From contig CP089276.1 of assembly GCA_023920165.1 (NCBI GenBank), positions 372,001 through 436,000 of the forward strand: a DNA stretch of 64,000 nucleotides, given 5' to 3'. The notes beneath the pieces are model-generated. The model had not been told where the DNA came from, did no database searches, and saw nothing but the letters and a program-made list of their open reading frames with translations. The translations under genes and the position numbers were made by a program. Each line of letters begins with the position of its first letter. The stretch's first letter is position 1. Below are positions 47,878 through 56,315 of the stretch, one piece after another. This DNA is from Curvularia clavata. Taxonomy: Eukaryota.

Positions 47878-48313
47878 TTACAGCTGACATCCTGGTAACT
47901 CTGCCAACTCTGCCCCAACAACTGTACTGCAAGAGCTCAAATGGGAATTCGAGTTGTTTGAAGGCGTCCCCGAAAGCGAAGGTCTAGCCGAACAATCATT
48001 GGATGGAACTTGGGATTGGCCTGTCCATGTCCGTACCGGCGTGTTTTGATCGAAGTTGTGATTGGAGGACGCGGGGCCGTCTTCCGGTGAGCATACTACC
48101 ATCCCAGTCATTACCTGCACATAGCCCCACAAAAAGCTTGATAAATTTGGTCTACATACACCTTGTCCGACGACTAAGAAGTCGTCTGTATAGCACGAAC
48201 ACAAGAGAATCTCGATGATGTAGGCCAGATAAGCCAACAACTACGCTAAAGATTCCAGTAATGCCAAAGAGGATCTGGAGCGTTGCGCTTATCGTGTTGT
48301 CGTTGTTCGACAT
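47878..48313 (-). CDS. Small single-pass membrane protein (~118-123 aa), 2 exons; exon 1 is absent from the ORF track
   Basis: Exon 1 (48313-48160) reads MSNNDNTISATLQILFGITGIFSVVVGLSGLHHRDSLVFVLYRRLLSRRTR. Donor GTATGT at 48159. Acceptors ending at 48096 (TAG) or 48081 (AAG) are both in frame with the Ser-rich ORF ending AELAELPGCQL*. Confidence 0.6.
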
Positions 48314-49241
48314 CGTCAAGTTTATGGAGGGTGGATGATGGTGTGATTGGCTGTTTGGTATAATGTGTAAACTGCAGGCAGTAAAGCGCAGATAGGCAAG
48401 CTGTAAAATAGAACACTGGACTGAAGCTGAATACGCGCGAGTGATGAAAACCTTAGCTCCTGTTGTGGATCGCGCCCATCCCTACGAGAGGCCGTCTTTT
48501 GATCACTGCCTTAAGCTGACACTGCCCCAGATTAGCAGGGTTCATTACTTTCAGCTCTCGCTCACCGGTGCATCCATGTGTCGATCATGTGACTGCTGGC
48601 TCCTTCTCACCGATTCAGCCTCTCTCACTCTTTTATGAAAATTATAGCCTTGCTTAATCGAGTGTCTATACCTTGTGTTTGATGTTTTTGTAACAGCTTC
48701 GAGGTAAAGTGAGTAGTTGAAGATAAGATCTGGCAAACATCGTCTGGGGGCAAAAAGGGTCCAGGCTAAACGACTGGTCGTCCACCGGCAGATAGCATTA
48801 CTCAAGAAGTGCACCAAAGTAACTAGTCATTTCTAAGCAACAACAAATTCTACGATATAATTCCGCTTGACGTGCGGGGGAGTCCCCTTGAACACATTTC
48901 CGAACTCCCCTATCCACGTATGATAGCCTTGGCCGCAGACTGCAGTGAGTTGCGTGAGCCTCAAGGTCTAAACCTACACGTGTACAGATGCGGAAGAGGC
49001 GCAGCAATGGGACGCCTAAAGGCTCAGTCCGCATAAATCGCACGTAGTGGGTTAGCGCTCTGAACGATCTAAGCCACTCCAGCTGCATACTCGTTTCGAC
49101 CAGCCTGGAGACTTCAGCCTTCCTTTCTTCATCAACAACAAACAACAAGGATTTTTAAGAATCTCTTTGTACCGTGAAACAAAGCTCTCAAGGAGATGCG
49201 CAGCATCTGAGATTGCAATAACTTGGCATGCATCCTGAATC

Positions 49242-52200
49242 ATGCGGCTTGTGCAGGTGAAAGCCGACGGCAGCTTCAGCCTTGCCAAATATGAAAACAC
49301 TTCAATCCCGCCGTACGCAATTCTGTCGCACACATGGGGTGACGACGGGGATGAGATCACATATGACGACATACAAAACAGGACGGGACAGGAAAAGACA
49401 GGTTACGCTAAGCTGACCTTTTGTGCTACGCAAGCCGCCAAAGACGGCCTCCAACATTTCTGGATCGACACTTGCTGCATTGATAAGTCAAGCAGTGCAG
49501 AGCTCTCGGAAGCTATTACATCCATGTTTCGTTGGTACAAGAACTCAGATCGGTGCTATGTCTATCTGACGGATGTCACAACCAACAAGAGGAAAGCCGA
49601 CGAGGCAGCCACACATTCGAATTGGATGTCGGCTTTTCGAACCAGCAGATGGTTCACCAGAGGCTGGACTCTCCAAGAACTGCTTGTCCCACGTACACTC
49701 AACTTCTTCTCTCGCGAGAGAAAGGAGCTTGGCAGCAAACTGGATCTAGCGCAGCAAATCCATGAAATTACGCGTATCCCTGTTTCCGCGCTTCGAGGAG
49801 TCTCTTTGCACGAGTTCTCTATAGAAGAGCGGATGTCCTGGGCGGCTAGTCGTGAAACCAAGCGTGAGGAAGATAAAGCCTACTCACTGTTGGGGATATT
49901 TGCTGTGAGCATGGTAGCAAACTACGGAGAAGAAGAGGAATCAGCGTTCAGAAGACTCCGACGAGAGATCCGAGAGACTACAGGCAACGATGTTACATCT
50001 TTGGATGGAGAAGAGAAGCAGCTGTTCATGAATACGCTACGATTTGATCAGATTGATGCACGTCACACCACAATCAAGAATGCTCACATTAAAACGTGCA
50101 AGTGGCTCTTGGACAAGTCGGAGTACGTTGATTGGCTCGATACGACGAAGCTGCGTCACCACCACGGCTTCCTGTGGATCAAAGGAAAACCAGGAACTGG
50201 AAAGTCAACTCTGATGAAGTTCGCATTTGGTGAAGCCAGCAAAGCTATGAAGCGCAGCGTTGTGGTTGCTTTCTTTTTCAATGCCAGAGGGGAAGTACTG
50301 GAAAAGTCCGTGATTGGAATGTATCGTTCGCTACTGTTGCAGCTGCTCGAGCAAGTCCCTAGCCTACGATGTTCCTTCAAGACCTCCAGTCTATCACCTT
50401 CAAGCGTCAATGCAGAATATCAGTGGGGCATTAATTCACTCGAAGCACAACTCGAACAAGCCGTACTTGGCATTGGAGATACACCCGTCGTTTGTTTCAT
50501 CGATGCACTTGACGAGTGCGAACAACGGCAAGTGCGAAATATGGTTTCATTCTTTGAAAATCTCGGTGAGCTTACGGTATCGTCTGGAAAATCCTTCCGG
50601 GTCTGCTTCTCAAGCAGACATTACCCTGAGATCACGATCAAGAAAGGCCTGAACTTTGAACTTGAGGGCCAGGAAGGCCATACACAGGACATTGACGACT
50701 ACATAGCGAGCGAATTACGGATTGGAGACAGTGGGATTGCCCAAGAAGCAAAGAAAGAGCTACAAAGAAAGGCTGCTGGAGTCTTCATGTGGGTTGTGCT
50801 CGTTGTGGATATATTGCAGAAAGAATACAACCGTGGGCGCATGTATGCCTTGAACCAGCGGCTTCAGGAAATACCCGACGACCTCCATCAATTATTTTAC
50901 GAAATCTTGACACGAGACTCATCCGACAAAGAGGCTTTGATTTTGAGCATTCAGTGGGTTCTCTTTGCGAAGCAGCCCTTAACTCCAGCACAGCTCTATC
51001 TCGCTATTCTCTCTGGTGTCGAACCCGAACTGATACCTCAATGGAACCCTGGCGCGATTCCTGAGGAAGACACATTAAGACGCTTCATCCTCGATTCATC
51101 CAAGGGTCTCACAGAGATCACGAAGTCCAAATCCCAAAAGGTTCAGTTCATTCACGAGTCTGTAAGAGACTTCCTGCTAAAGGATAACGGTCTTGGGAGG
51201 ATTTGGCCGCATCTTAGCGAAAATTTTGAAGGTCAGAGTCACGAACAGCTCAAGCAATGCTGCTTAACACTTATGCACTTGAACGCGGAAGGCCACATAG
51301 GAGTGCCCAATGACTATAAAGCGGTCTCACCACAAGAATTCACAAACACACGCGCGGTAGTTTCTCAAGCTTTCCCGATTTTGGAATATGCTATGCAGAA
51401 CATATTACATCATGCCGACGCTGCGCAAGGAGCCGAAATCGACCAACAGGATTTCATGGCGAGTTTCCCACTCCAAAAGTGGATCAAATTCGCCAACTTG
51501 TTTGAAAGGCATAAGATACGTAGATATACCAGCTCAGTGAGCACCCTCTATATCTTCGGAGATCGCAACATGCCAAACCTCATCAGATCCTATGCGGCTG
51601 AGAACACTTGTTTCGATGTTGAAGCAGAGCGCTATGGGGCGCCATTCTTCGCAGCTGTCGCGACTAAGAGCAAAGACGCTGTTTGCGCCTTTGTCGACGT
51701 ACTCAACAAAGCTAATGGTCGAGGGAAGCTCAGCCCAGAGTCTTACGTACATTTTTACCAAAACGAGGACGGGAGAAGTCTCCTTCCTCGGGACTTCAAA
51801 TATTCAAGAAACAGGAAAATGGTCTACTATCTTATCCATTTTGACGACAAGGCTGCTTTGCGTCTGGCAATTACCACAAACGCGATCGATGTCGACGTGA
51901 GACTTGAAGATGGATCAACGCTGCTGATTCGGGCAATACGAAGTGGATACAGGGATATTGTTGAGCTACTGCTGAGCAATTACAAGGTCGATGTTAATGC
52001 CAGAGGCCAGACGCTCCAGACACCGCTGGTCTGTGCAATACATAATGGAGATACAGATCTTGTTAACCTGCTGCTTAGCACTGACAACATTGATGTTAAT
52101 GCAGCGGATGTCTCTGGTGTCTCACCGTTGATTTGGGCAACAAAGGATTTGAATATGAATCTGGTTAGATTGTTGCTTAGCAATGACCAAGTCGACGTCA

Positions 52201-55289: not shown

Positions 55290-55620
55290 CTTGCATCTAG
55301 AATGGTCCGGCAGTTAGATTTACTGCAGCCTCGCCTACATTTCCGCGGGGGGCGTAAATATTTTGTTATGATTTGTCCGAGTGTACGGCTGAAGCCAAGC
55401 CACGGTTACATTGGAGTATCCTCAAGCTGCGTAACACGGCACAACTGAATTATTCTTATCAAGTACACTTGCATCCAGACCGCTCGGAGGGGCGCGATCC
55501 AGCGCACCCTCAGCCTACATTCCCCAGAGGGCGTAATGATCTTGTCGTAATTTGTCCAAGACACGGCTGAAGTCAGACGATGGCTGCATTGGAGTATTTC
55601 CAAACCAGGACTACAGTACT
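55290..55620. repeat. Diverged tandem duplication, ~178-bp period, inside a divergent intergenic region
   Basis: Shared blocks CTTGCATC (55290/55468), GCCTACATT, GGGCGTAA, ATTTGTCC (55371/55550), ACGGCTGAAG, CATTGGAGTAT occur twice in the same order and spacing. Confidence 0.85.
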
Positions 55621-55913
55621 AACGCCGATCAGCAGAATTTGTCCATGGATCGCTGACTGCCACTCTGTAACCGAGGCAGCTTATGGTGTGTAGTGATGCG
55701 GGCTGTATTTATAACTGGATTTAGCGAACCTAAGTGGTTGCGAGTAACAATAACTAACACCCTACATCAGATATTCACCGAGTTCTTATCATATTAACTG
55801 TGTTCACATACCTCTGTGTTATTCCTCCACTGGAGTCAGTGAAGCGGTAAGTGATGATAACCTACCCTTGAAGTCACCATAGCAGATACTCATAAAGCAG
55901 CAAAGGCTTCAAA

Positions 55914-56315
55914 ATGGCTGAGGCCCTCCTCGCGGCAGCCCTTGGAGGCTTCATACCAAACGTCCATACATTGGCCACGAACTTTTTCGACAAGGTTGGG
56001 TTCGATGGTGACGCCATTGGGAGGGAACGCGAAATCAGTCATGTTGTAGAGTTGGCTCGTAAACGCTACTACGAGGCTGGCATCCCCGTCAACATTGCTG
56101 TCTGGAATATGCATCTGGATGTGCATACATGGTTTGGTGATCCCATACTGGAGACTGGTATTAAGCCGATGGGCAAAGGAGGAGGATTCCGTGTGGTTAT
56201 TTTCCAAGGTGCAGGCCGCATTGAAAACAAAGGTGATCGGGGTTTTAGCAATTGGCATCGCTATGGTAATTGCAAGCGGGAAGATAACGTCATTACCTTT
56301 GAAGCTCGATCTTGA
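55914..56315 (+). CDS. Small 133-aa protein with an NxGDxG(F/W)xNW motif (resembles the Bacillus 'stress protein'-like family and its fungal homologues)
   Basis: ATG in CAAAATGG context and a probable 5' UTR intron (GTAAGT at ~55847). Pattern VNIAVWNM...FRVVIFQGAGRIENKGDRGFSNWHRYGNCKREDNVITF. Family resemblance is from memory. Confidence 0.8.
   Translation: MAEALLAAALGGFIPNVHTLATNFFDKVGFDGDAIGREREISHVVELARKRYYEAGIPVNIAVWNMHLDVHTWFGDPILETGIKPMGKGGGFRVVIFQGAGRIENKGDRGFSNWHRYGNCKREDNVITFEARS

Follow-up and report, generated by a model that had tools for sequence, protein, structure and literature searches.

Between a COQ2-like and a VPS29-like gene in a 64,000-nucleotide window of Curvularia clavata DNA (assembly GCA_023920165.1, contig CP089276.1, positions 372,001 to 436,000; coordinates below count from the first letter of this window), an interval of 8.5 kb holds a NOD-like receptor (NLR) gene, a gene for a protein of predicted MACPF/CDC fold and a small conserved gene, and the balance of the evidence tips towards this interval being a spot at which lineage-restricted accessory genes have collected, most likely acting independently. 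The first-pass annotation, made from the letters alone, had proposed an immunity island in which the NLR would be the sensor and the MACPF-like protein its pore-forming executor; such a cassette went without support in every test run, and the locus is better explained by the alternative offered in the same breath, a hotspot in which unrelated accessory genes have gathered. From the gene structures, domains, fold, transcription and frameshift described here we infer the independence of the genes: the NLR would be a self-contained HET-NACHT-ANK receptor whose own HET (TIR-related) domain serves as the death-inducing output, by analogy with HET-E; the MACPF-fold protein may form pores in target membranes; and the DUF7888-like small protein would be a separate player in the locus.

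The MACPF/CDC-fold gene lies on the minus strand in two exons. Exon 1 (54022..55115) encodes the MACPF core (residues ~5-270) and a helical bundle (residues 271-360), as read from its translation, an AlphaFold model and an RNA-derived contig; it is followed by a 50-nucleotide (nt) GT..AG intron (53972..54021), with a GTAAGT donor, a CTGAT branch-like site and a CAG acceptor, and by exon 2 (53608..53971; translation P0002), which encodes a C-terminal domain of 120 amino acids. Joined (55115-54022 and 53971-53608), the exons give a protein of 485 amino acids with no internal stop. The intron is skipped in record 26 of X8, a set of RNA-derived contigs that bears the same organism label as the window and comes from another strain. 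This record, of 3403 nt, covers 53440-53971, 54022-55845 and 55905-56938, and holds both spliced divergent genes, the MACPF-like gene and the small gene, together with the entire spacer between them. Both genes are transcribed and spliced. Given that their introns lie on opposite strands, the contig merges overlapping or abutting transcripts of the two strands; the transcripts of the two genes thus overlap or abut at their 5' ends. Depth in X8 (111.7 for record 26, 3-7 for pieces of the NLR) is one figure per contig and cannot rank the genes.

No Pfam model matches the MACPF-like protein at E<=10, PF01823 (MACPF), PF24674 (MACPF_SNTX), PF01289 (Thiol_cytolysin) and PF21109 included. The assignment comes from structure prediction. 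An AlphaFold model built from a 15-row alignment (predicted local distance difference test, pLDDT, 79.1; predicted template-modelling score, pTM, 0.74) shows a central bent beta-sheet with two flanking helical clusters (the transmembrane-hairpin segments TMH1 and TMH2), recognisable against solved MACPF/CDC members. Foldseek returned 27 matches at E<=1e-3, and all entries listed among the first 50 ranks are MACPF or CDC proteins, among them the Aeg-L pore (9uj0, 8.8e-7), stonustoxin (4wvm, 2.3e-6, TM-score 0.45), C8, TgPLP1, astrotactin-2, MPEG-1, perforin, pleurotolysin B, pneumolysin and other CDCs. VIA-align of the model also points to MACPF/CDC structures, with 11-12% identity to Aeg-L; the family profile (alignment A1) searched against the PDB finds Aeg-L as its best match, at E 0.062; and in the nearest ESM Atlas clusters (score 0.95) a minority of the proteins bear MACPF_SNTX, MACPF or Thiol_cytolysin. 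At the level of the modelled fold, the protein belongs to the MACPF/CDC superfamily, and the MACPF call that the first-pass annotation made from sequence was right at that level (model, Foldseek and VIA-align agreeing), in a protein without any Pfam MACPF match.

The protein has the architecture of a MACPF core, a three-helix FAT-like bundle and the 120-amino-acid C-terminal domain. The last of these aligns with the C-terminal domains of the relatives P0003, P0007 and P0012 and is also visible in P0041; neither Pfam nor a sequence search of the PDB gave a match to it. A MACPF domain followed by a helical FAT domain is likewise found in stonustoxin (PDB 4wvm), from which the window protein differs in leaving PF24674 and PF21109 unmatched, in ending in its own 120-residue domain and in belonging to an ascomycete rather than to a fish venom; stonustoxin ends in thioredoxin and PRYSPRY domains. 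The closest structural match, Aeg-L (PDB 9uj0), is the large MACPF partner of an aegerolysin pair of Alternaria alternata; identity to it is 11-12%, however, the window protein lacks a Pfam MACPF match, and its small neighbour is no aegerolysin. The function of Aeg-S and Aeg-L is treated in a review (PMC13341504, in excerpt).

Several sequence features accompany the predicted fold. Two motifs, an N-terminal G-x-G-Y-D and a Y-G-Q-Y, are kept across the family in alignment A1. The MACPF signature reads Y/W-G-T/S-H-F/Y-x6-G-G, and Y147 (90% or more) with G148 (invariant) stands in A1 as Y-G-Q-Y-Y, resembling the first half of that signature. The family profile is strongly amphipathic with a period of 2 across TMH1 (residues 55-92; z 3.8 in comparison with shuffles), the pattern that a segment refolding into a membrane hairpin should show. 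The maximum Kyte-Doolittle value of the protein is 0.63, and since it has neither a hydrophobic segment nor a start resembling a signal peptide, it is probably cytosolic. Were it to work as other MACPF/CDC proteins do, it would attach to a target membrane, the C-terminal domain being the probable point of contact, and then oligomerise, the two helical clusters unfolding into beta-hairpins that make the pore; such a pore might have a part in development or in dealings with other organisms.

The family to which this protein belongs is small. A phmmer search over 1.84 billion representatives found 14 relatives at E<=1e-3 (best 1.9e-42, 29% identity), with lengths of 308-475 amino acids and listed cluster members of 495 at most; none of the 14 has a Pfam MACPF-type match at E<=0.1 or any meaningful Pfam match at all. 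Those members that bear names are listed as 'hypothetical' proteins, from Elaphomyces granulatus (KAN0079214.1) and several Alternaria species (among them CAN9173507.1, RYN39369.1 and XP_049222697.1), and one cluster centred on Alternaria has 148 members. P0006, P0009, P0036, P0040 and P0046 are encoded on JGI contigs of 8-63 kb. A word-index search found no homologue with exon 1 and only P0016 and P0017 with alignment A1, and no family member was found in metagenome contigs (with the 3-sequence alignment A3), in viral contigs (A3 and P0005) or in prokaryote genome contigs (P0005). Read together with the modelled fold, these results make this rare, unnamed ascomycete family a sequence family new to the MACPF/CDC superfamily.

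Many of the Alternaria gene models (P0005 and P0034, of 375 amino acids) end after the helical bundle, while P0041 and P0042 reach 495; P0041 bears the C-terminal domain and P0042 is of the same size. In the short models the last exon has probably been overlooked, just as it would be if the window gene were read as a single frame. P0017, a far more distant relative at 20% identity, is encoded on a Logan contig of 6467 nt. A contig of exactly this length in run X6 carries a COQ2 homologue (80.6% identity), and the two may be one, though the agreement in length is an unverified coincidence; if they are, a family member stands beside COQ2 in another fungus, and the space left would be too small for an NLR gene of 4 kb.

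The NLR gene, on the plus strand, is open as it stands for 1030 amino acids (49242..52334) and is shortened by a frameshift. Pfam places a HET domain (PF06985) at residues 25-116 (6.4e-13) and an NPHP3_N NTPase at residues 285-459 (5.2e-32; the NACHT model itself scores 0.0068), the translation contains a Walker A-like GKPGTGKST, and ankyrin (ANK) repeats begin at about residue 880; Pfam finds no protease domain in the protein. The HET-NACHT-ANK architecture read by the first-pass annotation is therefore present in all its parts, though on a broken frame. The ANK units follow a register of 102 nt in which every step is 102 nt save one of 101 nt, between the units at 52176 and 52277 (spacing 102, 102, then 101). 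Printed in register, the units show one base absent at 52276/52277, the junction of two repeats, and the frame changes there; this 1-nt deletion (52276..52277) lies outside any long homopolymer. The NLR frame stops at 52334, and with ANK repeats on both sides of the deletion there is no single open frame. The rest of the array and the C-terminal tail continue out of frame and free of stops (52278..53194, plus strand), within a shifted frame that is open for 335 codons (52187-53194; Ank_2, 9.1e-51). In the sequenced strain, the deletion removes more than half of the ankyrin sensor of the NLR.

Logan contigs of run X2 match 51753-52966 with 0 differences; X2 is probably the source sample, so that the match excludes an error of a single assembler, leaves a read error possible and is not independent evidence. 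Because the shifted remainder of the array is still free of stops, the lesion looks recent. Whether the open shifted frame reflects a young lesion or a downstream part still constrained in other strains, either would leave it in this state. Pieces of the NLR are found in separate short X8 contigs (49174-49760, 49821-50362 and 50346-51085, at 91-95% identity); the identity threshold applied was 80%, at which some of these pieces could derive from paralogues. Among known receptors, the gene is most readily compared with the HET-E-type NLRs of Podospora, with which it shares an N-terminal HET, a NACHT-type NTPase and C-terminal superstructure-forming repeats (PMC9815663, in excerpt), and from which it differs in that its repeats are ANK rather than WD40, its units are 60-76% identical to one another and the gene is frameshifted. 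ANK is the commonest repeat type of ascomycete NLRs (PMC4986451, in excerpt), and with units of only 60-76% mutual identity the window NLR is not of the highly internally conserved repeat type described in that paper.

The small gene (55914..56315, plus strand) encodes a conserved DUF7888-like protein of 133 amino acids, recognised from its relatives, a structural model (pLDDT 83.2) and the ESM Atlas. It has 15 relatives at 42-55% identity and one 79-residue fragment at 92%, with 22 invariant columns. The Atlas places it with DUF7888 clusters (score 0.95, 207 shared features, TM 0.71), its nearest clusters including a 'putative stress protein' of Bacillota, and hmmscan gives no Pfam match at E<=10, DUF7888 (PF25411) and aegerolysin (PF06355) included. 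An identity as an aegerolysin was considered and rejected, there being no PF06355 match at E<=10 and the Atlas pointing to DUF7888. A 59-nt GT..AG intron lies in the 5' untranslated region (55846..55904, plus strand), its joint present in X8 record 26. The start codons of the two divergent genes (55115 on the minus strand, 55914 on the plus strand) are separated by a shared 5'-5' intergenic region of 798 bp (55116..55913), within which pairwise alignment reveals an element of ~105 nt in two direct copies (55317-55419 and 55497-55597, 178 nt apart). The best-conserved 35-nt core of this element is 80% identical between the copies, and the window holds 2 matches to the element in total against 0 expected; Tandem Repeats Finder finds no tandem array in the shared promoter. 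The duplicated element may be a regulatory module.

Against this background the possible partnerships can be weighed. In one type of fungal NLR-executor cluster the NLR starts with a short amyloid motif of which the executor bears a copy at its C-terminal end, in another a protease domain of the sensor (S8 or CHAT) cleaves a gasdermin, and 'all-in-one' NLRs bear their own effector, the HET of HET-E being a cell-death-inducing N-terminal domain (PMC9815663 and PMC12881547, in the text available). A cassette built on such lines, in which the NLR senses a cue and activates the MACPF-fold protein as a cell-death pore or, in a variant, guards it, is very unlikely here. What speaks for it is that the two genes are adjacent tail-to-tail, that fungi often encode an NLR in a cluster with its executor (PMC12881547, in excerpt) and that the MACPF-like protein, having no signal peptide, could act intracellularly. 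The separation of 413 bp given by the first-pass annotation is correct only with the frameshift read through, to 53194; from the real stop at 52334 the distance is 1273 bp. The locus recalls the NWD2/HET-S and PNT1/HELLP clusters in that an NLR gene adjoins a gene of pore-forming fold; however, the NLRs of those clusters carry the N-terminal amyloid motif that recurs at the executor C-terminus (PMC9815663, PMC12881547, in excerpt) and their executors are HeLo or HeLo-like, whereas the window NLR has a HET domain and no motif in common with its MACPF neighbour. From protease-gasdermin clusters it differs in that its NLR has no protease and its neighbour has a MACPF/CDC fold. The NLR of the locus is instead of the all-in-one kind, and its HET, beginning at residue 25, lies too close to the N-terminus for a signalling motif to precede it; given that this HET would supply the output, as in HET-E, no separate executor is needed. 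Comparison of NLR residues 1-40 with the ends of the MACPF-like protein, the small protein and a short open reading frame (ORF) to the left revealed no shared motif beyond shuffles, 103 and 87 of 300 shuffles scoring as high against the two MACPF-like ends, nor did the first 240 residues of the NLR share one with the whole MACPF-like protein beyond chance (five comparisons in total). None of the 14 relatives is NLR-sized or fused to a nucleotide-oligomerisation domain, and with listed members of 495 residues or fewer no fused 'all-in-one' form is seen. The two genes are convergent and fall in separate RNA contigs, and the NLR is broken in the sequenced strain whereas the neighbouring MACPF-like gene is intact and transcribed. 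The word 'Perforin' occurs 0 times in the available text of PMC9815663 and PMC12881547, and a limited search found no literature linking MACPF proteins to fungal NLRs or heterokaryon incompatibility. The adjacency of the NLR and the MACPF-fold gene is one instance, indistinguishable from chance, and a sensor-executor cassette is unsupported, short of formal refutation.

A pairing of the MACPF-fold protein with its small neighbour from a bidirectional promoter, the DUF7888-like protein targeting the membrane as aegerolysins do for pleurotolysin B or Aeg-L, is somewhat less far-fetched, though still unlikely. The 5'-5' layout over 798 bp with the ~105-nt element duplicated between the genes, the single RNA-derived contig bearing both spliced genes and the whole spacer, and Aeg-L as the structure that the large protein matches best all favour it, and six fungal aegerolysin/MACPF pairs are bidirectional 5'-5' pairs (PMC9505663, in excerpt). 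From pleurotolysin A/B and related fungal pairs the locus differs in that its small partner is no aegerolysin and in that the pairing does not recur at 13 other loci with relatives of the small protein. The small partner, however, lacks any Pfam match at E<=10, aegerolysin included, and its nearest Atlas clusters are DUF7888 with a Bacillota 'putative stress protein'. The neighbourhoods of its relatives speak in the same direction: in 13 metagenome loci (~93 kb in total) an HMM (hidden Markov model) search found no ORF of the MACPF-like family A1 (0/13; window control 9.8e-123), and the 85 ORFs of >=130 amino acids in these loci had no NACHT, HET, ANK or MACPF Pfam match, the neighbours varying by locus among APH kinases, Exo_endo_phos proteins, AMP-binding enzymes and others. 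The first-pass annotation had named, as what would count against its cassette, MACPF-like homologues without NLR association elsewhere and independent distributions of the genes; half of this was found, the relatives of the small gene having neither a MACPF-like nor an NLR neighbour at any of the 13 loci. Equally improbable is that the MACPF-fold protein is non-lytic, like astrotactin, and serves in development, trafficking or binding to membranes: Foldseek lists astrotactin-2 as one of its matches and no secretion signal is present, yet TMH1 is strongly period-2 amphipathic (z 3.8) and the closest matches (the Aeg-L pore, stonustoxin and the CDCs) are lytic. The reading of the interval as a collection of independent genes with a pore-former among them has to be set against several findings that weigh against it. 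The shared promoter region with its duplicated element and the one RNA-derived contig reproduce the layout of an aegerolysin/MACPF pair (PMC9505663, in the part at hand). The survey of small-gene loci is a modest test, just three of the 13 (L001, L005 and L010) having at least 2.3 kb on the relevant side, and it concerned the neighbourhoods of the small-gene relatives rather than those of the MACPF-like relatives. The model reaches low TM-scores against solved structures, at most 0.45 in Foldseek; the signature G-G position, six residues on, is Q-S in the family consensus; TMH2 (residues 168-212) is without the period-2 pattern in the family profile (z -0.7); and model confidence falls below 50 at residues 184-197, within TMH2. 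The missing G-G and the pattern of TMH2 also favour a non-lytic role. Pore formation is what we infer from the modelled fold, of a protein that no Pfam MACPF model matches.

Outside the flagged interval the window consists of filamentous-ascomycete core genes, identified by long ORFs and Pfam. The left flank is a UbiA prenyltransferase family gene (COQ2-like; 46408..47691, plus strand; UbiA, 8.4e-51), which lies within an RNA-derived X8 contig spanning 46275-47723, and the right flank a Metallophos_2 family gene (VPS29-like; 56881..57536, plus strand; 1.6e-13), whose exon 1 ends at ~56938, X8 contigs having loose ends at 56938 and 56996. Other core genes of the window are Anp1, G-patch, AMP-binding enzyme, GH92, tyrosine phosphatase, Alg9-like transferase, protein kinase, JmjC protein, inositol monophosphatase and Ecl1 genes. 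Guanine-plus-cytosine content in the island (0.46-0.49) is slightly below that of the flanks (0.52-0.55). The two divergent pairs that the first-pass annotation saw between COQ2 and VPS29 have the flanks and orientations described; the 'transmembrane protein' of the left pair, however, comes down to a 53-codon ORF (48152..48313, minus strand; ORF and translation), a putative gene at most, which has a single hydrophobic stretch (highest Kyte-Doolittle value 2.0, taken over 19 residues) and no Pfam match. No acceptable intron was found that would extend it to a frame ending at 47878. X8 contigs do not cover 48005-48806, where it lies, and absence from the contigs carries no weight.

Divergence between the window and the X8 strain is uneven across 46000-58000: ~0.2% in VPS29 (1/416), 3.9% in COQ2 (57/1449), 1.6% in exon 1 of the MACPF-like gene with the spacer (30/1823), 5.8% in the 3' part of that gene (31/532), 1.5% in the small-gene region (15/1033) and 5.4-9.2% in the NLR pieces. 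Recombination, balancing selection or paralogous mapping could each produce such a profile. In the large mixed runs X3 and X6, pieces of the island are found at 97-99% identity and low depth, apparently from the same species, and therefore no cross-species synteny comes from them. Runs X9-X16 contain a fraction of 0.19-0.22 of the sampled words.

When an NLR is equipped with an effector domain of its own, a single case of a gene lying next to it gives little reason to speak of an immunity island. That the MACPF/CDC-fold protein is an intracellular executor of regulated cell death under the adjacent HET-NACHT-ANK receptor, or the target that this receptor guards, is most improbable. The uneven divergence (~0.2% in VPS29, 1.5% in the MACPF-like and small pair, 5-9% in the NLR) would loosely fit such a role, as would the possible and unverified neighbourship of P0017 and COQ2. 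If it were true, a perforin-type branch of fungal NLR-controlled death would stand beside the HeLo/MLKL-like and gasdermin branches, and the interval from COQ2 to VPS29 would count as a locus of allorecognition or immunity. Were the family as a whole to prove NLR-linked, fungal immunity would gain a third class of executors; none of the present observations suggests this. The fungal MACPF members studied in the literature examined are partners of aegerolysins only, and a family that is invisible to Pfam, expressed, and predicted to combine a perforin/cytolysin fold with a stonustoxin-like bundle adds a branch to the fungal MACPF/CDC proteins.

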